Origin: an uncultured bacterium
GTDB lineage: Bacteria > Chloroflexota > UBA5177 > JANWHV01
Length of the DNA stretch: 64,000 nucleotides
Direction of reading: 5' to 3'
Assembly: GCA_963827235.1 (NCBI GenBank)
Contig: CAWHAE010000010.1
Location: 288,001-352,000, forward strand
This document shows, in pieces, positions 43,758-62,427 of the stretch. How positions within the stretch are numbered: the first letter of the stretch is position 1; every line of letters begins with the position of its first letter. A program made the translations under genes and the position numbers. A model generated the notes under the pieces. It was not told where the DNA came from, searched no databases, and saw nothing but the letters and a program-made list of their open reading frames with translations.

Positions 43758-44122
43758 GGTCGGATCCTTTCGTTCTTGTCCTTACGGGTGCCGCATGGTG
43801 GTGATCCACCGGGCATCCGTCGTCGCCGTGGGTCATGCGGTGCAGCTGCTGCCTCCCGCTCCCAACGCGGTCTGGCCTCCTTCGACTGATCCTCCTTTCC
43901 CTCGTCTTGCTGGTCGGCTTGGCACGCCCGGCTTGGCAGGAGTACTGCCCGGGACCCTGCGACCAGTCTGCGCTCACCGGCCGGCCCCAACCACGCAAAA
44001 CCGGCAACGCGACCGGCAAGAGCATCGGCAAGTCTTCCACGGTGTGCTATGCTCGTGCCTGTAGGGCGGAAACGGCCGGTGCACCGCTGCCCCGCTGGGC
44101 GGCAGAGGGACGGGCAGGCGCC

Positions 44123-47100
44123 GTGACCACGCTGTCGGGACCCTCCGAGGACGGGCGCCCGTCTGAGCAGGCGTTCGGCACGCTGTTGCGCGGCTACCGG
44201 CATGCCGCGGGGCTGACTCAGGAAGAGCTGGCCGAGCGGGCCGGTCTCGGAGTGCGCAGCATCAGCGACCTGGAGCGAGGTGCGCCGCACGCGCCGCGCA
44301 AGGACACCGTGGCCCTGCTGGCGGAGGCTTTGGCCCTTGGATTTGCTGAGCGCCGAGCCTTCGAGGCGGCAGCGCGCCGCCTCAGTCGCCCCCCCGTACC
44401 CGACGGAGCAGCTGCCGTAGAGCGGCCCGCGATCTTCGTGTGCTACGCAGGCGAAGATCGCGCCTTCGTGGAACGCCTGCGTGCCGACCTCACCAAGCGC
44501 GGCCTCGCCGACTGGGAGGGACCCCACGGTGCGCCTCCGGGCACCGCCGACTGGGAAGAGGCTGTCCGGGAGGGCATCCGCGCCTGCCAGGCCGTGGTGC
44601 TGGTCGCCTCGCCGGCGGCGCGCCTCTCACGCTTCGTTAAGGGCGAGCTGGCCGTGGCCGAGATGTATCGCCGCCCGATTGTGCCGATCTGGGCCGCCGG
44701 GGAGCAGTGGCTGGACTGCGTGCCGCTCGTCCTGAGCACCGCCCAGTACGTCGATGCCCGCGATCCGCGCTACTCCCAGGCGGTTGAGGAAGCTGCCGCA
44801 GTGCTGAGCGCGCTGGTCGCCGCCATCCCCACCACTGCGCTGAGCAGGCCGGCCGCCGACCGCTCAGGCACTCCGGCGGCCGCGGTGCGCCCGGTTTCCC
44901 CACGCAACCCGTACAAGGGGCTGCGCGCGTTCACCGAGGCGGACGCGGACGACTTCTTCGGGCGTTCCGGCCTGGTCGGCGAGCTGCTCGCGGCGGTCGG
45001 CGATGCCGGCGCGGGGCCGCGCTTCTTGGCCGTGGTCGGCCCCAGCGGCTCGGGCAAGTCCAGTGTCGTGCTGGCCGGCCTCCTGCCTCGCCTGCGGGCC
45101 GGCGCCCTCCCAGGCAGCGCGGGTTGGACCTACCTGCCGCCGCTGCTGCCGGGCGCCCACCCGCTGGAGGCGCTCACTGTTGCCCTGGGCGCCGCCCTGC
45201 CCCTGAGCCTCGCCACGCTGCGCGCCGACCTGGATGCCTCGGAGCGTGGCCTGCACCTGCTGGCGGCCCGCCTCGTGCCCCAGGCAGGCGGCCTCGTGGT
45301 GCTCGTGGTCGACCAGGCCGAGGAGCTGTTCACCCTGACGGCAGAGGAGGAGGAGCGGGAGCAGTTCTTCGCCCTGCTGACGACGGCCGCCGGCGAGCCG
45401 CAGGGCCGCACGCTGGTCGTGCTGACCCTGCGCGCCGACTTCTACGACCGCCCCCTGGCCTACCCGGCGCTCGGCCGGCTGCTGGAGGGGCACAGCAAGG
45501 CGGTGCTGCCCATGGGGCTTGCCGACCTGCGCGCGGCCATCGAGGGACCCGCCGGCCTGGCCGATGTGGGACTGCACTTTGAGGAGCGCCTGGTGGGGGA
45601 CCTGCTCTACGAGGTAGGTGGCCAGCCGGGGGCCCTGCCCCTCCTGCAGTTCACGCTCGATCAGCTCTTCGAGCGACGGCAGGACCACCTGCTGACCCAG
45701 GCGGTCTACGCGGAGCTGGGAGGGGTGCGCGGCGCGCTGGCCCGGCAGGCCGAGCGCACCTACACGCTGCTGCCGTCGGCTGAGCACGGCCGGATGGCCC
45801 GCGCGCTGTTCCTGCGGCTGATCGAGCCGGGGGCCACCGAGCAAGACACCGTCCGCCGCCGCGCCCTGCTGAGCGAGCTGGAGCTGGCCGACCGGCGGCA
45901 GACGGCACTGCTGCGCGCGGTGGTCGATGCCTTCGTGGGGGCCCGGCTGCTCACCACGGCGGAGCATGGGGGCACGACCACCGTGGAGGTGAGCCACGAG
46001 GCGCTGATCCGGGAATGGCAACGGCTGGCGGCCTGGCTGCACGAAGCACGCGAGGACATCCGGCTGCAAGAGGCGATCAGCGCGGATGCGGCGGCATGGG
46101 TCCGGCGGGGCCGTCCGCCCGACAGCCTGTATCGGGGCAGCGTGCTGCAGGAGGCACGGACCTGGGCGGCGCGGAACGTGGCGAGCGCGGAGGAGGTGGC
46201 CTTTCTGGAAGCGGGGGTGGCCGAGGCAGAGCGCCGGGAGGCGGCTGAGCGCGATTCACAGGCGCGCGAGCTGCACCTGGCCCAGGAAGCAGCTGCCGCG
46301 GCCCAGCAGACGGCAGCGGCCAATCGGCGCACCGCCGTACGGTCGCGCGCACTGGCAGGGATGCTGGCACTCTTCCTGCTGGTGTCTGCTGGCCTGAGTG
46401 TGTACGCCTTCAACAAGGCCTCGGATGCCAGCCAGGCCAGGACACGCGCGGCGGCCAGCGCCCGTGAAGCCCAGGCCAATGCACGCGCCGCGAGTCTGGC
46501 CCGTACCACGGCGCTCGGCGAGCGGACCACCGCCCTGGCCGCACTGTCCCGCGAATTGACGCTGCGCGCCGCTGAGTTGCTGGGGAGCCGGACAGGCAGT
46601 CAGACGCAGCTTGCCCTGTTGTTGAGCGCGGAAGCCCTGCACTTGAGCAGCTCAGCAGAGGCGCAGATCAACGTAGTCAGTTTCATCAACCACAACCCAC
46701 GGGTGCGGTCAGTTCTCGGCCCGCAGACCGGCGCCGTGGAGAGCGTGGCCTTCAGCCCCGACGGCACATGGCTGGTCTCACGCAGCAACGTGGGCACGGT
46801 CCAACTGTGGGACGTGGCCGGCGGCCAACCCCTGGCCGCACCCCTCAGCGTGTCCACAAGCACGGTCGAGAGCGTGACCGTCAGCCCCGACGGGAAGACC
46901 CTGGCCCTGAGCAGCGTCGACGGCACCCTGCGGTTCTGGGATGTGGCCCGCCGCCTGCCACACGGCCCGCCCCTCAGGGGGCACATCTTTGGGGATACCC
47001 TGGCCTTCAGCTCCGACGGCACGCTACTCGCCTGCGGCAATGCCGATGGCACGATTCAGGTGTGGGACGTGGTCCGCCTCCAACGCCTTGGCCCGCCCCT

Positions 47101-48697
47101 CGCCGGGCACACCGGCTCCGTGAACAGCATCGCCTTTAGCCCCGACGGCAAGACCCTGGCCTCCGGCGGTGCCGACAACACCATCCGGTTCTGGGACGTG
47201 GCCCGCCGTCAACCCTTGGGTCCGCCCCTCACCGGGCACGCCGGCTCCGTGAACAGCGTCGCCTTCAGCCCCGACGGCAAGACCCTGGCCTCAGGCAGCC
47301 ACGACGACACGATCCGGTTCTGGGACGTGGCCCGCCATCAACCCTTGGGCCAACCGCTGACAGGAGACACCGGCGCAGTGGAGAGCGTGGCCTTCAGCCC
47401 CGACGGCAAGACCATTGCCTCCGGCAGTGCCGACAACACTATCCGGCTGTGGGACGTTGCCCGCCGCCAACCCATGGGTCCGCCCCTCACCGGGCACACC
47501 GGCCCCGTGAACAGCATCGCCTTCAGCCCCGACGGCTCGGCCCTCGTCTCGGGCAGTGCCGACAACACCATCCGGCTCTGGGACGCGGCTGGTCCGCCGT
47601 CGCTTGGTGTGTCCCTGCCCCTCGCCGGGACCACACATGGTGTGAATTCCCTGGCCTTCAGCCCCGACGGCAGGCTGCTGGCCTCCGGCAACATGGACGC
47701 GACCGTCCGGCTGTGGGACATGGCCAGCCGGCACCAGCGGGGTGCCCCCCTCACCGGGCTGACGGGCTTTGTGAACGGCGTGGCCTTCAGCCCCGACGGC
47801 ACGCTGGTGGCCGCCGGCAGCAGGGACGATCACGTTCAGTTCTGGGACGTGGCCAGCGGGCGCCCGCTAGGCGTTCCACTCACCGCGAACACAAACAGCT
47901 TTGGGTATCTGACAGCCGTCAGATTAGGTGGTGTCGATGCCGTGGCCTTCAGCCCCGATGGCACGCTGCTGGCCACCTCCAGCGACGACGGCGAGATCCG
48001 GTTGTGGGACGTGGCCCGCCGCCGGCTTCGCGGGGCGCCCCTCGTCACCAATGGCCAGATTCCGGTGGAGAGTATCACCTTCAGCCCCGACGGGAAGACC
48101 CTCGCCTCCGGCAGCGAAGACGGCACCCTGCGCTTCTGGGACATAGCCCGCCGCCGGCAACTCGGCGCGACCCTGATTGCCAGGGTCGCGCAGGGGGTGG
48201 AAAGTGTCGCCTTCAGCTCCGACGGGAAGACCCTGGCCTCCGGCAGCGATGACGGCACCGTCCAGTTGTGGGACGTGGCCAGCGGGCAGCGGCTCGGCCT
48301 CTCGCTCACAGGGCCCACACAGGCAGTGGCGAACGTGGCCTTCAGCCACGATGGCACGTGGCTGGCCGCGGGCAGCAAGGATGGCACCATCTGGTGCTGG
48401 GACGTGGCCAGCGGCCAACCGTTGGGCGCTCCGCTCATCGCCATCGCCGTGACTCCCTCGAAGGTAGGCGTTTTCATTAGCACGGCGGCGCTCGGCCTGG
48501 CGGTCAGTCCCGACGGCACGCTGCTGGCCACGGGGGACGGGTACGGGATGGTCCAGTTGTGGGACCTGGACCCCACGACGCTGGCGCAGCGCGCCTGCCG
48601 CATTGCCAGTCGCAACCTGACGCGCGCGGAGTGGCGGGCCTATCTGGGCGACCTCCCCTATCAGAAGACCTGCCCCGGCTTGCCCGCGGGGACATGA
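44123..48697 (+). CDS. NLR-like protein: XRE HTH - TIR - nSTAND1 NTPase - TM - WD40 repeats
   Basis: HTH FGTLLRGYRHAAGLTQEELAERAGL; TIR IFVCYAGEDRAFVERL...SRFVKGEL; NPYKGLRAF...FFGR; Walker A GPSGSGKSS; Walker B LVVDQAEELFT; ALPLLQFTL; EVSHEALIREW; TM segment; about 14 WD40 repeats; C-terminal RNLTRAEW. Confidence 0.93.
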   Translation: MTTLSGPSEDGRPSEQAFGTLLRGYRHAAGLTQEELAERAGLGVRSISDLERGAPHAPRKDTVALLAEALALGFAERRAFEAAARRLSRPPVPDGAAAVERPAIFVCYAGEDRAFVERLRADLTKRGLADWEGPHGAPPGTADWEEAVREGIRACQAVVLVASPAARLSRFVKGELAVAEMYRRPIVPIWAAGEQWLDCVPLVLSTAQYVDARDPRYSQAVEEAAAVLSALVAAIPTTALSRPAADRSGTPAAAVRPVSPRNPYKGLRAFTEADADDFFGRSGLVGELLAAVGDAGAGPRFLAVVGPSGSGKSSVVLAGLLPRLRAGALPGSAGWTYLPPLLPGAHPLEALTVALGAALPLSLATLRADLDASERGLHLLAARLVPQAGGLVVLVVDQAEELFTLTAEEEEREQFFALLTTAAGEPQGRTLVVLTLRADFYDRPLAYPALGRLLEGHSKAVLPMGLADLRAAIEGPAGLADVGLHFEERLVGDLLYEVGGQPGALPLLQFTLDQLFERRQDHLLTQAVYAELGGVRGALARQAERTYTLLPSAEHGRMARALFLRLIEPGATEQDTVRRRALLSELELADRRQTALLRAVVDAFVGARLLTTAEHGGTTTVEVSHEALIREWQRLAAWLHEAREDIRLQEAISADAAAWVRRGRPPDSLYRGSVLQEARTWAARNVASAEEVAFLEAGVAEAERREAAERDSQARELHLAQEAAAAAQQTAAANRRTAVRSRALAGMLALFLLVSAGLSVYAFNKASDASQARTRAAASAREAQANARAASLARTTALGERTTALAALSRELTLRAAELLGSRTGSQTQLALLLSAEALHLSSSAEAQINVVSFINHNPRVRSVLGPQTGAVESVAFSPDGTWLVSRSNVGTVQLWDVAGGQPLAAPLSVSTSTVESVTVSPDGKTLALSSVDGTLRFWDVARRLPHGPPLRGHIFGDTLAFSSDGTLLACGNADGTIQVWDVVRLQRLGPPLAGHTGSVNSIAFSPDGKTLASGGADNTIRFWDVARRQPLGPPLTGHAGSVNSVAFSPDGKTLASGSHDDTIRFWDVARHQPLGQPLTGDTGAVESVAFSPDGKTIASGSADNTIRLWDVARRQPMGPPLTGHTGPVNSIAFSPDGSALVSGSADNTIRLWDAAGPPSLGVSLPLAGTTHGVNSLAFSPDGRLLASGNMDATVRLWDMASRHQRGAPLTGLTGFVNGVAFSPDGTLVAAGSRDDHVQFWDVASGRPLGVPLTANTNSFGYLTAVRLGGVDAVAFSPDGTLLATSSDDGEIRLWDVARRRLRGAPLVTNGQIPVESITFSPDGKTLASGSEDGTLRFWDIARRRQLGATLIARVAQGVESVAFSSDGKTLASGSDDGTVQLWDVASGQRLGLSLTGPTQAVANVAFSHDGTWLAAGSKDGTIWCWDVASGQPLGAPLIAIAVTPSKVGVFISTAALGLAVSPDGTLLATGDGYGMVQLWDLDPTTLAQRACRIASRNLTRAEWRAYLGDLPYQKTCPGLPAGT
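47095..47600 (+). repeat. Near-identical 129-bp tandem WD40 repeat units
   Basis: For example ggctccgtgaacagc...ctgggacgtggcccgcc..caacccttggg recurs at 47114 and 47243 (period 129 bp = 43 aa). Confidence 0.85.
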
Positions 48698-51159: not shown

Positions 51160-51900
51160 CATGATCACTGTCCTGGCGCACCACAGGGATCTGGATCGCG
51201 CTCCTGGCCTATATCGGTGTCGTCATCGGGCTGAGCCTGGTGACGGCCGGCGATGCCATCTGGCTGGCCCATGGTGGCAACGCCTTTGATGCGGCCTACG
51301 ACCCGGCGCCGACCAGCGCGACGTACGCGGCGGCAGCCGATCTGTTCCCGGTGGGCAATATCCTCTTGGTGCCGGCCTTGTTGCTCGGCGTGCCCGCCGT
51401 CCTGTACACGCCTTGGGCGTACTGGCGGCGGCCCCATCGCGGGCCCACTGCCGGGACCCGGCGGGAGCAGCGGCTGGCGCGCGGCTTGGAGCTGGGCGCT
51501 GTCGTGGCGGCAGCGAGTCTGGCCGTGCTGGCGCCGGTGGTCGCCACGGTCGCCGACCCGTCGCTAAGCCTACCTGCATCCTCGACGGGGCTCCGGCTGG
51601 CGTTGCTGGACGGCGGCCTGGTGCTCGCGGTCGTCCTGGTCACTACGGGCTTCGCCTTGGATCTGCGCGGTACCCGCTGGGCCAGACAAGGGCGGGTGCT
51701 GCTCTGGATCGGGACGAGCGCCTTGACCGTGGCGAGCCTCCTGGACTCGTGGGCCGGCACGAGCCTCAGTGGCACGACGGGCAGGTACGTGGCCCGCTCC
51801 TTCGCTGACCCGACCGCCTATGGCGGCGTGCTCGACCACTGCGTGGGGGCCGGGAGCTTCGTGCCAGCCGCAGCGACCGCGGCACCGCTGTTGGCGGTCG
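51160..51900 (+). pseudogene. Degraded multi-TM membrane protein (possible sensor input domain)
   Basis: Hydrophobic helices LLAYIGVVIGLSLVTAGDAIW...AAADLF...LLDGGLVLAVVLV. No clear start and apparent frame breaks; boundaries approximate. Confidence 0.35.
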
Positions 51901-52049
51901 TGGTCGAGCACGGGCATGGAGTTGCCGACATGCGGGCCGATTCGTCGCACTACAAGCGGGGCGCAGACGCGCTTGCAAGCGCGAATCAGGAGAACAGGTT
52001 GCGCAGCAACATGCGAGAACCAGCGCCCAGAGCGTGCTGGACCGAGGAG

Positions 52050-52305
52050 TGCGGTTGAGGCAAGGAGCCTGGCCTTGCTGGAGCACTGGGACGGCTTGGG
52101 TTGGCGGGTGGTAGCGGGTCCCAAGGTCGCAGATGCCTCCAACAGCCTGGCCGGCGTGACGGCGGTATCGGCCCATGATATCTGAGCCGTCGGGTCGAGC
52201 ATGCAGACTCCGCAGCAGTCGGGCTCCTGCCGCGGCGGACCGTGCCCCACGCGGACGCTGATCGAGCACTGGGACGGCATGCGCTGGAGCATCCTCCTGA
52301 GCTAA
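52050..52305 (+). pseudogene. Remnant of a TLIEHWDG-type beta-propeller repeat protein with an in-frame stop
   Basis: LALLEHWDGLGWRVV...SLAGVTAVSAHDI*AVG...TLIEHWDGMRWSILLS*. TGA at 52183-85 replaces the Trp of the expected DIWAVG motif. Confidence 0.7.
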
Positions 52306-52367
52306 AGCGATGCCACGTCGAGATCTACATGCCTCGCACGGCGCTGGGACCGCGGCCGTCTGTGTTC

Positions 52368-52422
52368 TTGACAACTCGCGATTCCGTGCTAAACTAGACT
52401 CAGAGATAGAACGTATGTGCTA
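52368..52422 (+). promoter_or_regulatory. Sigma70-type promoter followed by a LexA-like box
   Basis: TTGACA (52368-73), 16 bp, TAAACT (52390-95) with TG extension. TAGAACGTATGTGCTA at 52407-22 resembles the Gram-positive/Chloroflexi SOS box GAAC-N4-GTTC. Confidence 0.5.
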
Positions 52423-52835
52423 CTATCTGCGACACCGGCACCAATGGACGGCGAGCATACCCGTTGGCTCGCGCGCGCCCGCACCGTTGCTCGACGAGTT
52501 GGATGGACCACGCTGGACTGTGCCCGCCGCGCCGGCACGGACCCCTGCCCACCGCCGCCGAACACCGCTGCGCCCGGCTGCACCGCTTGCGCCCGCGCCG
52601 GCCGCCCGCGCTACGGCTGCCCGCGCACTCACGCTGCCGGCCCACGCGGCGCCGTGGATCTCAGATGGTTGCAAATGCTTGTAAATGCTTGTCAGGAACT
52701 TGTCCCGCTGACGCATCCTACTGCTTGCTTATGCTAAGACGGCCCTGGGATCGTGCGTCGTAGCGCAGTTCCAGCTGCACACTCTATTGCGGGTCTGCAG
52801 GTTGGTCCCACTGCCGTGCGACGACGCGTATCGCA

Positions 52836-53924
52836 TCACGGTGCCGGAAACGGCAGCGGGATGGCGTACAGCTTAGCCACCGCGACCAGCCCGCGCGCAA
52901 CTTCCAGGTCGAGACGGACGCCATCGCGCAGCGATCGCTCCATGGTCCGATGCTCTCTCTCGCCGGCAACAAGGATCTCCACCTCCGACTCGGCCCGGGC
53001 GGTGCCCTTGACGCGCAGTATCAAATCCGTGAGCCGGCGCCTAAAAGACGCCGGCTCGTCGAAGGCGGCGATGTTGACTGCCATGAAGAACTGCCCCAGG
53101 TCGCTGGCTCTACTGCCGCGGGCTCGCTGGATGAGCGGCCCGTAGAGTGAGCCCGGCAGCACGGCGCTCAGTATCTCCACCGCCATCGCCAGCCCGTAGC
53201 CCTTGTAGCCGGAGGTAATCGCCAGGCCGCCAAGGGGTAGCAGGCCGCCCGCCAAGCCCTCCTCGGGCGAGTCCGTGGGCCGGCCCTCAGCGTCCAGCGC
53301 CCAGCCGGCAGCCAGCCGCTCACCCCGGCGGCGCGCCACCTCAAGTCTGCCCTGTGGCACCACGGATGTCGCCACGTCCAACACGAAGGCAGGGATGCCT
53401 TCCGTAGGCGCAGCAATGGCGATGGGATTGGTGCCCAGGGCCGGCTGCTTCCCACCGGTGGGCACGACCAGCGGAGGGCTGTTCGTCAGCGAGACGCCAA
53501 TCTGGTCGTGCTCGAGCGCCATCATCGCGTAGTAGCCGGCCATTCCGTAGTGGTTCGAGTGGCGGACGGTCACGATACCGACGTCATGCGCCGCCGCCAT
53601 CTCGATAGCCTGCCGCATGGCGTGCACGCCAGCCGGATGGCCCATACCGTTGCGTGCGTCCAGCACGGTGGTGGCGGCCGACCGGCGCACGACTACCGGC
53701 TGCGCCGTGGCGTCGATCGCCCTCATCTCGATCATGGTGGCGTACCATTTGAGGAGTCCGACGCCGTGCGAAGCAATGCCGCGCATGTCGGCGGCAAGCA
53801 GGACGCGGGCGGTCGTCTCCGCATCATCGCTGCTTTGACCGGCGGCATGCAGTACTCGCGCGGCGAACGCCTGCAACTCGCCGGCAGCCACGCGGATCGA
53901 GGCAGCGTCAGCGAACGAGTCCAT
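52836..53924 (-). CDS. Ldh2-family (type 2 malate/lactate dehydrogenase, AllD/ComC-like) oxidoreductase
   Basis: ADMRGIASHG, SNHYGMAGYY, GTNPIA, LDVATS, YKGYGL, ILVAGERE. Confidence 0.93.
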   Translation of the reverse strand: MDSFADAASIRVAAGELQAFAARVLHAAGQSSDDAETTARVLLAADMRGIASHGVGLLKWYATMIEMRAIDATAQPVVVRRSAATTVLDARNGMGHPAGVHAMRQAIEMAAAHDVGIVTVRHSNHYGMAGYYAMMALEHDQIGVSLTNSPPLVVPTGGKQPALGTNPIAIAAPTEGIPAFVLDVATSVVPQGRLEVARRRGERLAAGWALDAEGRPTDSPEEGLAGGLLPLGGLAITSGYKGYGLAMAVEILSAVLPGSLYGPLIQRARGSRASDLGQFFMAVNIAAFDEPASFRRRLTDLILRVKGTARAESEVEILVAGEREHRTMERSLRDGVRLDLEVARGLVAVAKLYAIPLPFPAP

Positions 53925-54506
53925 CTTCTTCCCTTCTTCGCCTTGATTCCGACACTACTTTGTGAGATTCAATCCGATCGCTTCGCCGCAGGATGGCCGC
54001 ACACGGTGACCTTCGTACATATATCGGACCAGTTATCGGCATCCGTTCATTTTTGGGGGCGCCGCCGCGGGCATCGTGCCCGACGCAAGCCAGGTATCGG
54101 CCGCACTGCGCTCCTCGCTCTTGTGGCCCAGACGTATCGGACGCACCACTCAGTTCGGAGCTCCGGTCGCCGACGTTTCCTGCCACACTGAAGGCGATTC
54201 TACCAGGCTTTCCTAGTCCTCATGTATTTGCACGCGCACCAATACGGTATATCCTACGGTTGGTAAATCGGCGTTTGCCGGCTGGGAGGGTCCTGCTCAA
54301 GCCCGGGATGTCGCGTTGGTATCATGCCACGGACTGGGCCGGCACCAGCTTGAGAATGAAGCCGGCGCTGATCGGATTTCTGACTGCCGCCTGGGAACGT
54401 TCTCGGCCAAGCCTAGATTGGGATCGCTGCGCACATCGAAAATGCCCGGACCGTACCGTATGCCGGAATCGTCGTGCCAAGCCAAAGTACAGTTTGCGAG
54501 GCTCCA

Positions 54507-57218
54507 ATGGCGTGTCTGCATGAAGACGAGAGCCGCTCAGTTGCTGGGCGAGATGATGCGCTCGATGCCGCCCTCTCTGTCGAAGAAGCGCGTGAGGAGC
54601 TGATCGCGTACTGGAAGGCACGCCTAGCCGGGGCGCCGGCATTGCTCGAGCTTCCTGCCGACCATCCGCGCAGTGCTCTACCTTCCGGCCCGAGGGCAAC
54701 TGTTCGCTTCGAGATCCCAGAGGGGATGCTCAACCAGGTTCGGGCCCTCGCGAGCGACAACGAAGCTACCCTGTTCATGACGCTGCTGGCGGCATTCGAC
54801 GTGGTGCTCGCGCGCTATAGCGGACAGACGGACGTGTGCGTCTTCGTGGCAGAGAGAGCTCGGGGCGGGATTTGCTGCCCGCCGGAACAGAGGGATACCG
54901 TCGCTACCAACACGCTCGTCTTCCGGCTAGACCTGGAGGGGAATCCCAGCTTTCTCGCGCTGCTGAGCCGCGTTCGCGAGCAGCTCCTGAGCGACGTGAA
55001 GCATCCGGGGCTATCTCTCGCGCAGCTGGTGGAGACACTACGTCCCCAGCTGAGTCCGGCGTACAATCCGCTCGCGCAGGTGCTCGTCATCATGCATGGC
55101 ATGCCGGCATCCGGCTCGGCGACGACGGGCGTGGAACAGCAATCCTCGCAGCCTGACCTGGACGTAGCCAGGCTCGATCTCGTGCTGCGCCTCACAGAGA
55201 CGGCGACCGGGATCGCGGCGGAGCTGGACTATGCCACCGATCTGTTCGAGCACGCGGCGATCGAGCGACTGGCGGCGCATTTTACGATCCTTCTGGGCGG
55301 GATCATCGCCGAGCCGGACAAGCCGATCTGCACGCTGCCGCTGATGACGCCCGTGGAGCGCCATCACGTGCTCATCGAGTGGAATCAGACTGCCAGCCCC
55401 TATCCATCCGAGAGCTGCCTGCACCAGTTGTTCGAAGAGCAGGTGGAACGCACGCCAGAGTCTGTCGCGCTCGTCTTTGGCGGCGAGCAGCTGTCCTATC
55501 GACAACTCGACGAGCGGGGCAATCAACTGGCATTCCGACTCCGGGAGCTCGGGGTTGGTCCAGAGGTTCTCGTCGGACTGTTCATGCAACGGTCGGTCGA
55601 GGCGTTCGTGTCGGTGATCGGCATTCTCAAGGCAGGCGGTGTATGTGTTCCCTTCGACCCTGGCAACCCGGCTGAACGCCTGGCACGCCTGATGGGCGAT
55701 GCGCGGCCGGCCGTCGTGCTCACGCATCGCAGCCTCGCTCACCAGCTTCCCGATCACTCGGCCGCAACCGTCTTCCTCGACGACCGGCTCGCCGACAGCA
55801 CGCTCTCTAGTGGCCGGCGCGTTCAAAGCGGCGTCACATCGCGGAATCTCGCCTACGTGTTCTTCACTTCGGGCTCGACCGGTAAGCCCAAGGGAGTGAT
55901 GCTGCGGCACAGCGGTCTCTGCAACATGGCGACAAGCCTTTCCGAGATGCTCGGGACCGGAACGTCGAGTCGAGTCTCGCAGCTCGCTTCACTCAGCTTC
56001 GTCGCTTCGCTCTGTGAGATATTCTCGGCACTGTCAAAAGGTGCGACTCTCGTCGCGGCCACACCGGACGAAAACCAGCCGGGACTGCCTTTGTGGCGCT
56101 TTCTGCAGCGACAGTCCGTCTCGATGGCGACGTTTGTGCCGTCTGCCCTGGCGGTCATGCCATCCGACCCGTTGCCCGAGCTCGATACGATAACCGTCAT
56201 GGGCGAGAGGTGTCCCGCGGATCTCGTGCGACGGTGGTCTTCCGGCCGCCGATTCTTCATCGGCTACGGCGCGACCGAGGTCAGCGGCCGCGCGATCATG
56301 TGGCAGGCATCGGCCGCCGCCGAGGCTCCGTTGATCGGCCGGCCGCTGCACAACGTTCGCGCATATGTGATGGACGAGTATGGCCAGCCCGTGCCTGCAG
56401 GTCACACCGGCGAGCTCTATGTCGGCGGCCCGGGAGTGGCACGCGGCTACCTGAATCACGACGAGCTCTCGGCTGAGCGCTTCGTCGCCGATCCGTACTG
56501 CGACGTGCCCGGATCGCGACTCTGCCGGGTCGGCGATCTCGTTCGCTATCGGCCGGACGGCAACCTTGAGTATCTGGGTCGAGCCGACCAGCAAGTAAAG
56601 CTGCGTGGTTATCGAATCGAGCTCGGCGAGATATCGGCTGCCTTGCTCGAGCATCCGAGTGTGGCCAGCTGCGCGATAACCACATATGAATTCGCACCGG
56701 GCAGTCCGGACCTCGTGGCGTACGTGGTCGCCCGCTCGGAGCCGCCGCCATCGGCACAAGCTTTGCGCGACTTCTTGCTGCAGAAGTTACCCGTGTTCAT
56801 GGTGCCGGCGAGGTACATGTATCTGGCGGTACTTCCCTTCACCCCAAACGGGAAACTCGATCGCCCGGCGCTTCCACAGCCGGACGAATCGGAGCCGGCG
56901 GGTTCCGGCACGTACGTGCCTCCGCGCACGGAGCTAGAGGAGCACGTGGCCCACGTCTTCGCGGAAGTCCTCGGCCTGGATCGGATCGGGAGAGACGACG
57001 ACTTCTTCCGGCTCGGCGGTCATTCGTTGCTAGCGGCGCGCGCGATGGCAAGGCTCAGCGATTTGTATGGACTGGAGATTCCGCTGGACGTTCTGTTTAC
57101 GCATCCTACGCTTGGCGCGTTCGCAGAGTATGTCGACGCAGTGGCATGGGTACAGGCGCAGGCTTCGTCAAACTCGACGAGCGCCGGCGGTGCAGGACGG
57201 GTCGAGGAGACCATATGA
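54507..57218 (+). CDS. Single-module NRPS-like protein: partial C - A - PCP
   Basis: C-terminal half of a C domain only (YWKARLAGAPALLELPADHPR; no HHxxxDG). A motifs: AYVFFTSGSTGKPKGV, GELYVGGPGVARGY, GRADQQVKLRGYRIELGEI, PNGKLDR. PCP motif DDFFRLGGHSL. Confidence 0.92.
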   Translation: MACLHEDESRSVAGRDDALDAALSVEEAREELIAYWKARLAGAPALLELPADHPRSALPSGPRATVRFEIPEGMLNQVRALASDNEATLFMTLLAAFDVVLARYSGQTDVCVFVAERARGGICCPPEQRDTVATNTLVFRLDLEGNPSFLALLSRVREQLLSDVKHPGLSLAQLVETLRPQLSPAYNPLAQVLVIMHGMPASGSATTGVEQQSSQPDLDVARLDLVLRLTETATGIAAELDYATDLFEHAAIERLAAHFTILLGGIIAEPDKPICTLPLMTPVERHHVLIEWNQTASPYPSESCLHQLFEEQVERTPESVALVFGGEQLSYRQLDERGNQLAFRLRELGVGPEVLVGLFMQRSVEAFVSVIGILKAGGVCVPFDPGNPAERLARLMGDARPAVVLTHRSLAHQLPDHSAATVFLDDRLADSTLSSGRRVQSGVTSRNLAYVFFTSGSTGKPKGVMLRHSGLCNMATSLSEMLGTGTSSRVSQLASLSFVASLCEIFSALSKGATLVAATPDENQPGLPLWRFLQRQSVSMATFVPSALAVMPSDPLPELDTITVMGERCPADLVRRWSSGRRFFIGYGATEVSGRAIMWQASAAAEAPLIGRPLHNVRAYVMDEYGQPVPAGHTGELYVGGPGVARGYLNHDELSAERFVADPYCDVPGSRLCRVGDLVRYRPDGNLEYLGRADQQVKLRGYRIELGEISAALLEHPSVASCAITTYEFAPGSPDLVAYVVARSEPPPSAQALRDFLLQKLPVFMVPARYMYLAVLPFTPNGKLDRPALPQPDESEPAGSGTYVPPRTELEEHVAHVFAEVLGLDRIGRDDDFFRLGGHSLLAARAMARLSDLYGLEIPLDVLFTHPTLGAFAEYVDAVAWVQAQASSNSTSAGGAGRVEETI

Positions 57219-58324
57219 CGCCGTTGGCGCCGGCCGATCTCGACCTTCTGACGCGACTGCGCCAGGCCGACATCAGGCTCTCGGTGGACGGTGAGAGCCT
57301 TCGCGTGAGCGCGCCGGCCGGCGCCGTTACGCCGGAGCTACGCGCCGAACTGGCCCAGCACAAGGCAGAGCTGCTCGCGTTCCTCCGCTCGACCGGTGGC
57401 GAAGGCACGAACCAAGGCGGGCGAGCGCCAATAGTTGAGATTCAGCACGGCGCGGGCAAGGCCCCCTTCTTCTTCCTGCATGGCGACTTCACCGGCGGCG
57501 GATACTACGCACACAGACTCGCGCGCGGCCTCGGCCCGGATCGGCCCTACTACGCGCTGCAGCCCCATGGACTAGACAGCGAAGACCTCCCACGCACCAT
57601 GGAGGCGATGGCGGCGTCGTTCGTCAAGCCGCTGCTTGGAGTGCGGCGGGAGGGGCCGCTGTTGCTCGGCGGGTACTGTGCCGGGGCATGGGTAGCTCTG
57701 GAGCTGGCCCGGCTCTTGACGGCGCGCGGAGAGAACGTGGAGCTCGTCGTCGTCCTGGATCCGCCCATTCAACCGCCGCTCCGAATTCGTCTCGTAAGAA
57801 GGTTGGTCGCTGGAATCGGTGCCGTATTGCGCATCTCTCCGGAGCGCCAGCTGAACGTCTATCTGGCGCTCTGGCGGCGTTATGGAAGGGGGCCCGCGGC
57901 GGCTCGGGGTCATGCGGAGCATCCAGAAGGCCGAGCTCCGTGGCACCGCGCTCTCGACCTGGTGCTGGCGCGACTCTGTGACGCCCCAGGGAATAGCCAG
58001 GGCCGCGCAACGCTGGCTGGGAAAGCCGCGCTGGATAACACCGACATGGGAGCCAAATACGTTTGGGTCCGGGCCCGCTATCGACCCCGAGTGTACGACG
58101 GCCGCGTCACGCTTCTCCAATTCTCGGATCGACCGGTTCGCTACCTGGAGCGACAGGAGAGGTGGTGGCGGTCCCTGGCCCGGCATCTCGAAATCCGCAC
58201 GGTCCCTGGGGATCACGATACCTCGATCACGCAGCACAACGCAGTGCTCGCGGAGCAGCTCCGACTCTGCCTCGAGGAACGATCTCAACCGCCGGCAGGC
58301 GAGCACACGCATCGCGGCGGTTGA
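57215..58324 (+). CDS. Stand-alone thioesterase with N-terminal TubC-type docking domain
   Basis: ATGA overlap with the NRPS. LLTRLRQADIRLSVDGESLRVSAPAGAVTPELRAELAQHKAELLAFL (TubC_N-like); FFFLHGD, GGYCAG, VPGDHDT. Confidence 0.85.
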   Translation: MTPLAPADLDLLTRLRQADIRLSVDGESLRVSAPAGAVTPELRAELAQHKAELLAFLRSTGGEGTNQGGRAPIVEIQHGAGKAPFFFLHGDFTGGGYYAHRLARGLGPDRPYYALQPHGLDSEDLPRTMEAMAASFVKPLLGVRREGPLLLGGYCAGAWVALELARLLTARGENVELVVVLDPPIQPPLRIRLVRRLVAGIGAVLRISPERQLNVYLALWRRYGRGPAAARGHAEHPEGRAPWHRALDLVLARLCDAPGNSQGRATLAGKAALDNTDMGAKYVWVRARYRPRVYDGRVTLLQFSDRPVRYLERQERWWRSLARHLEIRTVPGDHDTSITQHNAVLAEQLRLCLEERSQPPAGEHTHRGG

Positions 58325-58390
58325 CGACGCACGCACCTGGCGGCCTGTCGGAGAGATGGTGCAGAACGTGATGAACTCGGAGTCGGTCAA

Positions 58391-61300
58391 CTACGCCGAG
58401 TCCCGCACCACCAGGGTGGTGGGAATCGCTCTGTGCGTGTGCGTTTGCGGATCGCCCTCGATGTGTTGCAGGAGCAATCCGGCTGCCAGCTGACCGGTTT
58501 CGTAGGCAGGCGCGCGAACGGTGGTGAGGGCCGGCTCGACAATCTCCGCCTCGTCGATGTCGTCGTACCCGACAACGGCCACGTCCTGAGGTATACGCAC
58601 ACCGCGCCGGCGTAGCGCCCGCATGGCGCCGATAGCCATCAGGTCGTTGGCCGCGCAGACTGCGTCGAAATCGAGACCGCCATCGAGCAAGGTGCGCATC
58701 GCCTGCTCTCCGCCTGCACACTTGAAGTCGGCCTCGACGAGAAGCCGCTGATTGACCGAGACACCGAACTGCCGGTGCGCGGCCAGATAGCCGGAATACC
58801 GGCGTGCGGAGGCCAGTGTGTCGGCCAGACCGCCGATGAACGCTATGTGGCGCCGGCCTTGCCGCAGCAGGTGCTGAACGGCCTGCTCAACTCCGCCGAC
58901 GTCGTCGAGATATATCGACGCCATCTCGACAGTGCCGATCGCAGAGCTGATCACGACGGCCGGCATGTCGTGGCCGGCAAGAGACAGTACATCATCCGTG
59001 GTCAGTCGAAACGGAAAGTAGATAACGCCGGCAGCCAGCTGGAGCGCACTCTCTTCGAGGAAGTAGGCCTCCTTGCCGGCCTCGGCGTCGGTGCTGCCGA
59101 TCATTACGTGGAGGCCGCGTGAGGTGATCGTGTCCTCGACTCCGCGCGCCATCGCAGCGTAGAAGTGATTCGCGACGTCGGGCACGATCACCGAGACCAT
59201 GTGACTGCGTCGTGTTCCCTGGATACGCTCCGAGCCATCTCGCCGATGGTTGCGCGTGGGTGCCGGCTCCTCGACGGGCAGCGGTGTCACCGGAGTGGCG
59301 ACAATTGGGAGACGCAGGCGAAACGTGCTGCCCTGGGGGCCGGTGGATTCGAGATCTACCTCACCGTTCATCGCCCGGGCGAAGCTGCGGGCCAGGTAAA
59401 GCCCCAGACCGGTGCCCACGCGGCCGGCGCGCATCCGGCTGCCGGGCACGCGACCAAACCGGGTGAACAGTTGCTGCCGGCCTTCTTCCGAGACGCCGGT
59501 ACCGAAGTCTCGCACGCCGAGGACGGCGTGGGAGCCTTGCTGGGCCCAGACTACACGAATCGGAGATCCTTCCGGTGAGTACTTGGCCGCATTGTCGATC
59601 AGATTGAGCAGAATCTGCACGGCCGCGATCGGGATCGGCCAGCACCTGCAGGTCGGCCGGGCCTTCGAGATCGATCCTCTGGCCTGGATAGTTCGTGCGA
59701 ATCTCCTCGGCCGCGCGGCCGGCGAGGCTGCCGAGGGCTACGGGCTCCGTCTTGGCCACGATGGCGCCCATCTCCAGGCGACTGAGCAGCAGGAGCTCCT
59801 CGACCAGTCGCTTCTGCCGGTTTGCCGAGGCGACGATGTGATGCAGCATTTTCAGGCGATCCGGATCTCCCAGCCTGCTCCACTGCATCTCCAGCAGCTC
59901 GGCGTAGCCGACGATGGCCGTGAGCGGGGAGCGCAACTCATGACTCACCGTGGCCACGAAGTTGCTGCGCAGCTGCGCCAGGTCCTCGGCGACGGCTGCC
60001 TGGTGGGCGAGGATCTCCTCAGCGCGTTTCAGCTTTGTGATGTCTCGCGAGATCCCCACCAGTCCGACGAAGCGGCCGTCACGCATGATAGGCACTTTCG
60101 TGGACTGGAGCCAGCACGGCCGGTGCGCCACGGCGGCGAGATCCTCCAGCATGCCAATCTGGGGCTGCCCAGTGCGCATGATCTCCTGCTCTGCGTCATA
60201 GATGACCTGGGCAAACTCGCGCGGATAGAAATCAAAGTCAGTCTTACCAATCTCCTGTGCCGGATCTCGATGGCCGACAAAGCTGGCGTGGGCCTGGTTG
60301 GCCCGGATGATTCGCGACTGGCGATCCTTGAAGTAGATGAAGTCCGGCATCGCGTCGAGCAGCGTTTGCAGCAACTGCTCGCTCTCGCGAAGCGCAGCCT
60401 CGGCCCGTACGCGCTCCGTGACGTCTGTGAACACCACCGCGAACTGACCAGGTGCTGGCCGGAATAGGACGAGGTCGTAGTGGCGCCCCAGCTGCTGCTC
60501 ATGGCGCTGGTACGATACCGGATCGCCGGTCAGCACCACATGGCCGGCCACCTCGATCAAGTGCTGCTCGATGGCTGGCTCCAACTGCTTGACGGTCTTG
60601 CCTATTAGCTCGGCGGCTCGTGCACCTGTTATCCGCTCATAGGCAGGGTTGATCTCCAGAAACCGGAAGTCGGCAGGGTTGCCGGCGTCGTCATAGATCA
60701 TCTCGTGCAGGGCAAAGGCCGCGGTCATATGCTCAAACAGCAAGCGATACTTGCGCTCGCTCCGGCGCAGTGCCTCCTCTGCCGCCTTGCGCGCGCTGAT
60801 GTCTTCGACCACGACCACGAAATAGGCCGGAGCACCCGCGCCGTCGCGGACCAGCGATGCCGTGCGATTGACCCAGACAGGGAGTCCCCGCTTGTGTATA
60901 CAGCGCTTCTCGGTACTTACCGACGGGAGCCGGCCTGCCAGAAGGTCGTGCCGGAGCACCAGGTCGGATCCCACGTCTTCGGCGTAGGTGATCTCCTCAA
61001 ATCCTCGCTGCAACAACTCCTCAGCCGTGTAGCCCACGATGGCGCACAGCCGCTGGTTAACGAGCATGAAGCGCCCATCAAGCGCCACGAGGGCGAGGCC
61101 GACCGCGGCCTGCTCGAAAGTGGCCCTGAACCTCCGTTCGCTCTCAGCGAGGGCCGTTTCCGCCTGGTGTAGCGCGGTAATGTCGCGCGTGATGCCCACA
61201 AGACCGGTCACGCTGCCGTCGCGCACGATCGGCATCTTGGTCGCCAGGAGCCAGTACGTCTGAGAACCTTGCACCAACTCCTCGAGCTTGTTGATGCTCG

Positions 61301-61982
61301 GCTCACCCGTGTCTATCAGTCGCCGCTCCGCAGCCATCGTGGCACGGGCGAACTCGGTGGGCAAGAAATCGGCGTCCGTCTTGCCCACGGCCTGCGCCGG
61401 CTCGTCCAGCCCCAAATGTTGAGCATGTGCGCGGTTGACCCGGAAGAAACGTGTGGCTCTGTCCTTGAAGTAGATGGACTCGGGCACCGTGTCCATCAGG
61501 GCTTGGAAGAGGTCGCGTTCGGCGACCAGTTCCTGTTCCATCCGCCGGCGTTCAGTGATATCCTCGAACTCTACGACTACCTCCGTCGGGCGGTCTGCAC
61601 CGGCGGCGGTGATCGGGATGGCAGCAATGTTGAGCCAGCGATAGCGTTGGTCCACGGGATGAAACACGCCTATGACCACGTCGTGGATCTCCTCGCCCGT
61701 GGCAAGGGCGACGCTCGCCGGATGCGTCGCGCCCGGGAAGTCGCTGCCGTCGGGGTGGATGGTACGCCAGCGTGGGTCGACGGACGTCCGCCCTTGCAAC
61801 TGACCGAGTGTCAGACCCAGCAAGCGCTGCGCCGCCTGATTGGCGGTCGTGATGACCCCCTCCGCATCGTGGAAGACCACGCCTAATGACGTATGCTCAA
61901 ACAGAAAGCGATAGCGGCCCCCGTCGTCGCCCGGTGTCTGTTCGGCGTCCGAACGCACTGTCTCTTCGTTCAACCCGCTCAT
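58391..61982 (-). pseudogene. Multi-PAS histidine kinase fused to a C-terminal LacI-type ligand-binding domain, +1 frameshift near 59624
   Basis: Five PAS/PAC units; H-box VSHELRSPL. After the frame break: QILLNLIDNAAKYS, DFGTG, GTGLGL, then SHMVSVIVPDVANHFY...RIPQDVAVVGYDD...LVVRDSA. Removing one G in cgc-g-gcc-gtg restores DRAVQILLN. May be a sequencing error. Confidence 0.85.
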
Positions 61983-62427
61983 GTGGGGTACCGTCCATTC
62001 CCCTCGCGTGGAGAGCATGAAGCTGACGATGGCACCCCGGTCCGGCACCGACGCCATCCAGACACGCCTGCCAGACCGCTCGGTGATCTGGAAGCAGGCG
62101 GCCAGCGCGATGCTGGCTCTCTTGACGACGACGCGGGTGCGCCAACTGAGCGGCTCATAGCTCTCCCCACCGTCTCAGAGTGGCCTCTGTGTGATGAGAA
62201 TAGCACTCTCAGCCGTGTATTGGAACGGGTCCCGCGCCTACGGATCAGGGGGAAACGCTGGTACTGTGAAAGTACTCCCAGGAAGGAGGTATACACGCGC
62301 AGCAGGCGATCCGACTACCCAACCCCAACTTCTCCACCCAACTGGGGCAACACCTTGAACATGGCGCAACGTGTCGATTGGGCCCCGATTGACTGCTTGT
62401 GCCGAGCACCTGATGAGGAGTCATGCT

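Follow-up and report, generated by a model that had tools for sequence, protein, structure and literature searches.

A split NRPS-like protein with a cysteine thioesterase in an uncultured Chloroflexota bacterium, tentatively read as a loader of an acid without an alpha-amino group

The bacterial furanone synthetase RalA resembles the nonribosomal peptide synthetases (NRPS); it is built of an adenylation (A), a carrier (T) and a thioesterase (TE) domain and dimerises aromatic alpha-keto acids. The A-T-TE quinone synthetases (atromentin and polyporic acid) also combine one loading module with a TE and perform no condensation chemistry, and Val at position 1 of their specificity code marks keto-acid activation, as stated in the relevant section of PMC10316625. 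In the depsipeptide keto-acid modules (StsA/CesA, Vlm1/2, CrpD-M2), a ketoreductase (KR) domain is embedded between A and T, the amine-binding Asp of the A domain (Asp235 in GrsA numbering) is replaced by an aliphatic residue (passages of PMC10949194 and PMC13643306), and the conserved Pro of core motif A5 is replaced as well. According to the part of PMC11253843 that deals with StsA, the Asp has become Ile in this domain, apart from this only the backbone carbonyl that precedes Met415 makes an essential contact, this Met corresponds to the conserved Pro of amino-acid domains, and the variant M415P is dead. The loading domain of McyG, which is part of a polyketide synthase (PKS)-NRPS hybrid and a starter for non-amino or hydrophobic acids, has Val at the Asp235 position (another part of the same source). 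Moreover, the TEs of ObiF (beta-lactone) and SulM (monobactam) have an uncommon Cys nucleophile in a 'GXCXG' motif, associated with strained-ring formation (PMC6668435), and split NRPS subunits of the TubC_N (beta-hairpin) type have an N-terminal dock on the downstream subunit and an acidic tail on the upstream one. Here we compare with these systems a two-gene NRPS-like locus on contig CAWHAE010000010.1 of the uncultured Chloroflexota bacterium GCA_963827235.1 (genome G000). The stretch analysed, called the window below, comprises 64,000 nucleotides (positions 288,001 to 352,000 of the contig), and coordinates refer to it unless another contig is named.

The first gene encodes an NRPS-like protein with the remnant of a condensation (C) domain, an A domain, a T domain (peptidyl carrier protein, PCP) and a C-terminal tail, and the second encodes a docking domain followed by a TE (Table 1). 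Because of two signature positions in the A domain, a paralogue in the same genome and the rules found in the literature, we tentatively favour the view that the two proteins form a stand-alone NRPS-like loader for a non-amino acid (2-oxo or 2-hydroxy), which would be released through a Cys TE. An earlier note on this DNA, here called the sequence-only reading, had also regarded the A domain as one for a keto or hydroxy acid and had proposed a three-gene pathway that includes a neighbouring Ldh_2-family oxidoreductase gene. It did not mention that the TE nucleophile is Cys, nor the docking domain or the paralogue, which are added here.

In the A domain, core motif A4 reads SFVASLCEIF, as had been stated, and in the HMMER alignment to the solved LgrA its Val lies opposite both the Asp of 'sfDgs' (module 1) and that of 'ifDis' (module 2). 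We compared 213 related A domains, drawn from the homologues collected in this analysis. Their Asp235 column contains Asp in 187 cases and Val in none; among the 26 domains without a readable Asp, four are cut alignments and 22 are scorable. The second signature position is in motif A5 (GYGATE), where Ala stands in place of Pro. This Pro is kept in 166 of the 187 Asp domains and absent from 20 of the 22 scorable non-Asp domains. The Asp is replaced by an aliphatic residue as in the depsipeptide keto-acid domains; the A5 Pro is gone as well, but the residue in its place is Ala and not the Met415 of StsA. The LgrA variants P483M and P483A both gained alpha-ketoisovalerate activity (PMC11253843). 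Val at code position 1 is also the residue given for the A-T-TE quinone synthetases in the cited section. The A3, A5 (Thr-Glu), A6, A8 and A10 motifs are intact, A10 being NGKLDR with its Lys codon at 56853-56855, and the GYGATE motif, the catalytic Lys and the PCP Ser listed in the sequence-only reading were all seen. Taken together, Val and Ala make it unlikely that this domain binds a standard alpha-amino acid, and to this extent the earlier claim stands; the choice between a keto and a hydroxy acid, and any product, we can only infer.

The same genome has a paralogue of 1161 aa (P0061; contig C19, 70266-75096, or 10267-15097 of locus L014), which shares 48% identity over 859 residues. In this protein the truncated C-lobe, A, T and Cys-TE are fused, the C-lobe begins at the same point (Pfam model positions 189-456), and an Sfp-type phosphopantetheinyl transferase gene directly follows. 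Its A4 is SFSVCVWEIF and its A5 is VYGSTE, so that Ser occupies the place of Asp235 as well as that of the A5 Pro, and its code is S-V-W-L-V-G-V-T-G-K. Since the paralogue has the same layout together with this Ser/Ser pair, the loss of amine binding probably predates the duplication and would be an inherited trait rather than a fresh lesion. The truncated layout itself is older than the duplication. In tblastx the two loci are collinear over NRPS and TE only and have no common neighbours. Three open reading frames (ORFs) upstream of the paralogue (325, 165 and 470 aa) have no Pfam family.

A FastTree phylogeny of 206 A-domain cores places the window domain and the paralogue as sisters (support 100) inside a supported clade of 31 rows, in which the other 29 all have Asp. 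Among the 20 most similar Asp-bearing cores, seven are within one mismatch and ten within two mismatches of the published Phe or Tyr codes; the lineage apparently descends from domains of the Phe/Tyr type. The domain thus differs from the depsipeptide keto-acid domains in lying inside an Asp-bearing clade, in a tree that contains no reference keto-acid domains. Its origin in an aromatic-amino-acid-type clade resembles the A-T-TE aromatic keto-acid synthetases, which were compared by description only. Another clade with good support comprises 16 A-domain rows; none of them has Asp235, and most are from A-T-TE(Cys) proteins of about 900-950 aa (members include P0145, P0149, P0157, P0171, P0179, P0247, P0256 and P0265); their codes, for example GQTSKGFETK and AQTVKGNGRK, have Gly330-Arg331 in common with the window domain.

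We extracted the specificity code, a check that the sequence-only reading had proposed, with positions set from the core motifs. It is V-A-C-T-T-M-G-G-R-K and resembles no amino-acid code compared. As a check on the mapping, the same columns read DASTVAAVCK, DFWNIGMVHK and DALWLGGTFK in relatives; we take the second to be a Thr code and the third to be a Val code. The numbering also agrees with the published GrsA code DAWTIAAICK and the CepA Tyr code DASTVAAVCK (both in Table 1 of PMC11355689, the part used here). A simple switch from Phe/Tyr to an arylpyruvate was considered and rejected, since the window code differs from both published codes at 7 of the 10 positions, and the substrate is therefore not readable from the code. 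The residues suggest a rebuilt pocket that would be roomy (Gly322, Gly330) with a basic floor (Arg331), and its acid may therefore bear an acidic or polar group at the distal end.

The C domain was confirmed to be a C-terminal half. The Pfam Condensation match covers model positions 188-453 of 456 only, and in tblastn with four full C domains the similarity begins at 54585, about 54 residues past HHxxxD, while upstream of this point there is no match with E < 1 in any frame. As only the structural C-terminal lobe is retained, condensation chemistry is not expected of the remnant, nor peptide-bond formation of the NRPS-like protein as a whole.

The separation of the TE was also analysed by comparison with the fused paralogue. 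About 260 extra bases lie between carrier and TE in the window, corresponding to the tail, the stop/start and the dock, and the collinear tblastx matches jump from 57113 to 57401. The TE ATG overlaps the NRPS stop in an ATGA at 57215-57218 (TGA at 57216-57218) and is preceded by a GAGGAG box at 57204-57209; this ATG is most likely the TE start, and the overlap would couple the translation of the two genes. The 903-aa and 369-aa forms are also the recorded database forms (P0005 and P0125). The N-terminus of the TE protein matches TubC_N with 67 bits against a cut-off of 26, and related subunits end in similar acidic tails (P0090, P0078). Besides this dock, tblastn of the whole assembly found no TubC_N-like dock at E <= 0.01, and among 40 TE-family members scanned the only one with TubC_N was the window's own protein. 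Complex prediction of the PCP tail (residues 860-914) with the dock (residues 1-70) gave a score of 0.33 against a mark of 0.34, with controls at 0.00. The dock presumably binds the acidic tail of the upstream protein, as in the TubC_N split subunits, except that here it leads directly into a thioesterase and not into a C domain. Because of the ATGA overlap, the insertion of tail and dock and the presence of a sole dock, the two proteins can be regarded as one functional unit.

The nucleophile motif of the TE is GYCAG, and that of the paralogue is GYCAA. In a profile search against solved structures, in which similarity is confined to the first half of the type-I TE domains, the Cys aligns with the Ser of the best match, Skyxy-TE 7crn. 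The AF2 model (pLDDT 83.6) consists of the docking domain, an alpha/beta-hydrolase core and a helical insert, and its best Foldseek matches are NRPS/PKS TE domains (7crn, Pks13, AB3403, NocB, Vlm2). As in ObiF and SulM, Cys is at the nucleophile elbow of a type-I fold, and the acyl-enzyme would consequently be a thioester. Kinship with these two was not found: of the 31 solved TEs with a match at E <= 0.01, not one bears the name ObiF1 or SulM, and the window Cys-TE appears to represent a TE lineage distinct from them.

This lineage is large. Among 1.84 billion representatives, a profile of the two TE sequences has 27,659 protein matches at E <= 0.001, of which 512 reach E <= 1e-30. The pattern G-x-C-x-[GA] occurs in 137 of the 149 family proteins listed besides P0061, by a crude whole-protein pattern count. 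In an alignment of 56 members, the Cys is present in all 56 and the His of the PG.H motif is at least 90% conserved; the family consensus is LHGD...GGG.Y and G[FYH]CNG, with a long helical insert. The architectures include A-T-TE, C-A-T-TE, T-TE and stand-alone TE. A TE-family match is present in 63 of 401 genomes of the phylum, a tally that includes G018, G055, G175 and G226, flagged as unpublished; the 60 loci fetched exclude them. No specific name for this Cys-TE family is found in Pfam or NCBIfam: an NCBIfam scan of eight family proteins gave no specific family, and the TE part in the ESM Atlas has only generic 'thioesterase domain-containing protein' clusters. A profile search of the genome contigs with the two-sequence TE alignment gave 193 pattern matches, none of which was confirmed. 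In a full-text literature search, NRPS Cys TEs besides ObiF and SulM were not found, and the family may still be described. The idea that a Cys-TE marks non-amino substrates was rejected, as Asp235 is present in 47 of the 65 A domains of family proteins listed and in every one of the 23 TE-proximal A domains that were captured next to a Cys-TE in other genomes.

We propose the following course for the favoured two-protein loader. First, the A domain would adenylate a carboxylic acid that lacks the alpha-amino group (2-oxo and 2-hydroxy acids being the likeliest) and attach it to the carrier. Second, the acyl group would move from the carrier to the TE Cys as a thioester. Third, release from the TE would occur by hydrolysis, cyclisation or self-condensation. 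Judged from its domains, the system would work like an NRPS-like A-T-TE enzyme, whereas it lacks the KR domain that defines the depsipeptide keto-acid modules and has no working C domain. From the A-T-TE quinone synthetases it differs in its separate TE, joined through a docking pair, in the C-lobe remnant that is kept and in the Cys nucleophile. The McyG loading domain, likened here by description only, has the same Val and belongs to a PKS-NRPS hybrid, unlike the window domain. By itself, the NRPS/TE pair reveals no new kind of system. If active, it would be a compact two-gene system of about 3.8 kb in which a non-amino acid is activated and released via a thioester-forming TE. It would then offer a test case for the switch of an A domain from amino to keto or hydroxy acids, with a Val/Ala and an independent Ser/Ser solution in one genome, for the benefit of a Cys nucleophile in a TE outside beta-lactone or beta-lactam formation, and for a docking pair inserted between T and TE.

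Several observations weigh against this proposal. The NRPS-like protein has no orthologue with more than 50% identity: the best non-self matches among 5.8 billion clustered proteins have 42-48%, and the best NRPS match in 40 related genomes (a tally that includes G018, flagged as unpublished) has 44%. Without an orthologue, there is no evidence of purifying selection. Motif A7 of the A domain is C-R-V-G-D; one of the 213 domains has Cys in the Tyr column, and Val occurs in the Thr column of none. Three unusual residues of the A domain are each one base away from the usual codon (Val GTC/Asp GAC, Ala GCG/Pro, A7 Cys TGC/Tyr) and may come from recent point damage or an assembly error. There is no KR domain (Pfam gives Condensation, AMP-binding, AMP-binding_C and PP-binding alone, with AMP-binding_C ending at residue 794 and PCP starting at residue 825), and a scan of 15 neighbouring ORFs in the window revealed no aminotransferase; the quinone synthetases differ in this last respect. 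The TE-proximal A domains of Cys-TE loci in other genomes, as given above, all keep Asp235. By a published rule, the remaining code residues of keto-acid domains resemble those for the matching amino acid, and the window code, with its departure from the Phe and Tyr codes, does not conform. Finally, McyG accepts L-Phe in vitro in spite of its Val (PMC11253843).

This last case leads to another substrate, which we consider unlikely. The domain might take an acid that is unsubstituted at the alpha position (of the McyG starter type, for example an arylpropanoid, aryl or fatty acid), or it might still activate an amino acid in spite of Val235. Its closest relatives with Asp belong to the aromatic type, half of the 20 being close to Phe/Tyr codes as described, which agrees with such a substrate. 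Against a beta-amino acid, beta-amino-acid domains have Asp at 236 (VDWVISLADK, seen in relatives, which we take to be a beta-alanine code), and position 236 of the window domain is Ala. McyG takes hydrophobic acids in addition to L-Phe, and aryl-acid domains also have no Asp235 (sections of PMC11253843). The same sections give an A5 signature for aryl-acid domains, QQVxFMAEGL, that is absent from the window domain, and tie the A5 Pro, which is lost too, to keto-acid binding.

A decaying relic is rather improbable. The locus would then be a duplicated fragment of an aromatic-amino-acid NRPS that became product-less after the loss of the N-lobe, Asp235 and other residues. It is restricted to one genome, its surroundings are not a biosynthetic cluster, and the D-to-V, P-to-A and Y-to-C replacements are single-base changes; A7 departs at two near-invariant columns, and the C-lobe motifs are more eroded than those of the paralogue (HPGLSLAQLVE vs HKDLPFDQLVE). 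On the other hand, the two frames, of 903 and 369 aa, are uninterrupted and share homology with their relatives over the whole length; the catalytic Lys and the PCP Ser are in place, as are the Cys and the His of the TE. Among the 47 columns conserved at 93% or more, three are violated, and as many are violated in 11% of 202 related domains, so the window domain is within the range of its relatives. The ATGA coupling and the matched tail/dock pair are elaborations rather than decay. Moreover, the paralogue independently retains the layout and lacks the same two residues.

The three-gene pathway of the sequence-only reading is likewise rather improbable. In this pathway the Ldh_2 protein would convert a free 2-oxo acid to a 2-hydroxy acid or else act on the keto acid while it is tethered, the A domain would do the loading, and the TE would form the product, which might be an ester, a lactone or a dimer. 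Enzymes of the Ldh_2 family reduce 2-oxo acids, and in the fungal enniatin synthetase a free-standing keto-acid reductase feeds a hydroxy-acid-activating A domain. The Ldh_2 protein is full-length (Pfam E 7.6e-112, residues 13-345, model positions 2-331 of 333). All five of its matches to NCBIfam equivalogs (sulfolactate, ureidoglycolate, malate/lactate and diketogulonate dehydrogenases) are below cut-off, the best being sulfolactate dehydrogenase with 245 bits against 500. The closest solved chains are the type-2 malate dehydrogenase 1v9n and the sulfolactate dehydrogenase 2x06, whose substrates have a second acidic group that would suit Arg331. The genes stand head to head over a common intergenic region (Table 1), and among the 27 Ldh_2 genes of five genus genomes only this one adjoins an NRPS, an adjacency whose chance for one family is below 1% by a rough count made post hoc.

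The comparative evidence does not extend this association. No Ldh_2 gene lies within about 10 kb upstream or 6 kb downstream of the paralogue (a 20-kb stretch), and no Ldh_2 homologue (E <= 1e-5) occurs at the 60 TE-family loci (942 kb) taken from further genomes of this phylum. None of the listed NRPS matches is close to any of the remaining 26 Ldh_2 genes of the genus. The genome has eight copies, and the four other genomes of the same genus (G001-G004) have three to seven each. The closest homologues (66% in G001 and 60% in G002) have no other gene in common with the window and occur in unrelated contexts, the G001 copy between squalene-hopene cyclase/radical-SAM (hopanoid) genes and NAD synthase. 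Third-position G+C is 0.82 in the Ldh_2 gene and 0.74 in each of the NRPS and TE genes. The linkage to homologues that had been suggested as a check was not found as far as it is testable, the NRPS gene having no true orthologues. A role of the Ldh_2 gene is thus backed by nothing beyond its adjacency and its divergent orientation. The gene is most probably a mere neighbour, and at most its product would provide a 2-hydroxy acid without being required. Judged by adjacency alone, a three-gene cluster would have been called wrongly.

It is very unlikely that the pair is a split bacterial counterpart of the fungal keto-acid-dimerising NRPS-like enzymes. In that case a remodelled pocket with an Arg floor would load a 2-oxo or 2-hydroxy acid of acidic or aryl type, and the Cys TE would keep it as a thioester and perform C-C or C-O self-condensation to a dimer, lactone or oligo-ester in place of hydrolysis. 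The Cys-TE family as a whole would then represent a release chemistry of its own, as yet uncharacterised and unrelated to that of ObiF/SulM.

Table 1. Positions of the NRPS-like and TE genes, their domains and key codons, and the adjoining Ldh_2 gene in the window
Feature	Position	Strand	Basis or remark
Ldh_2-family (malate/L-lactate/sulfolactate-type) oxidoreductase gene, 362 aa	52836..53924	-	Pfam PF02615; neighbour, membership of the system not supported
Divergent intergenic region, 582 bp, Ldh_2 to NRPS gene	53925..54506	.	no remnant of the C-domain N-lobe
NRPS-like gene, 903 aa from ATG 54507 (GTG 54474 also possible)	54507..57218	+	C-lobe remnant-A-T-docking tail
Condensation C-terminal lobe; N-lobe and HHxxxDG absent	54582..55364	+	Pfam Condensation, tblastn
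Adenylation domain (AMP-binding and AMP-binding_C), code V-A-C-T-T-M-G-G-R-K	55431..56855	+	Pfam E 2.7e-79
GTC, Val at the amine-binding Asp235 position (GrsA numbering)	56001..56003	+	LgrA alignment
GCG, Ala at the conserved A5 Pro (GYG-A-TE), second keto-acid determinant	56271..56273	+	alignment and PMC11253843
CGC, Arg at code position 331, putative pocket floor	56289..56291	+	code mapping
A7, C-R-V-G-D vs Y-[RK]-T-G-D, two unusual replacements	56523..56531	+	213-domain alignment
Carrier (PCP/T) domain; phosphopantetheine Ser TCG 57024-57026, motif GGHS	56946..57134	+	Pfam PP-binding E 5.9e-17
C-terminal tail after PCP, end ...GRVEETI; candidate partner of the dock	57135..57215	+	missing from the fused paralogue
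Docking and thioesterase gene, 369 aa from ATG 57215 (open frame from 57146)	57215..58324	+	Pfam, ATGA overlap
TubC_N-type N-terminal docking domain	57242..57388	+	Pfam PF18563 E 1.4e-18
Type-I thioesterase fold; Cys nucleophile TGT 57677-57679 (GYCAG), candidate His CAC 58214-58216 (PGDH)	57428..58300	+	Pfam Thioesterase

The surroundings of the NRPS and TE genes are not biosynthetic. In the Pfam scan, the neighbours are STAND-WD40, PNPOx-like, DinB, PAS histidine kinase and FecR-like genes and two ORFs without a family. The G+C of the three-gene stretch is 62-68%, and codon-position G+C resembles that of the neighbouring genes, which speaks for an intact locus. Homologues of the window's flanking genes lie on different contigs in the four same-genus genomes, so the boundaries of an insertion are not definable. 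Within the intergenic region between the Ldh_2 and NRPS genes, there is no Rfam match at E up to 1 and no promoter-like site. The scans of 52000-58700 yielded nothing above chance level; their hits were a sub-threshold Rfam match outside this region, a promoter-like site (52368-52395) and a terminator-like site that falls within the A domain.

The Ldh_2 family is expanded in this genus, and no member was found in 16 genomes of other genera of the class at E <= 1e-20 (this tally also includes the unpublished G018). Upstream, a gene at 43835-48697 (+) encodes an nSTAND1 NTPase of 1620 aa that contains roughly a dozen WD40 repeats and is unrelated to the NRPS/TE pair. A 272-aa ORF at 51240-52058 (+) has no Pfam family and a strongly coding-like codon-position G+C (0.70/0.59/0.84); its homologues in two same-genus genomes have 41-42% identity, with one in-frame stop in each match. 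Downstream, at 58391-62057 (-), a frame with five PAS domains and HisKA (59361-62057) overlaps by 260 bases the frame 58391-59620, in which HATPase_c is joined to a periplasmic-binding domain of the LacI type; the arrangement reflects either a frameshift in a histidine kinase gene or a split of an unusual kind.

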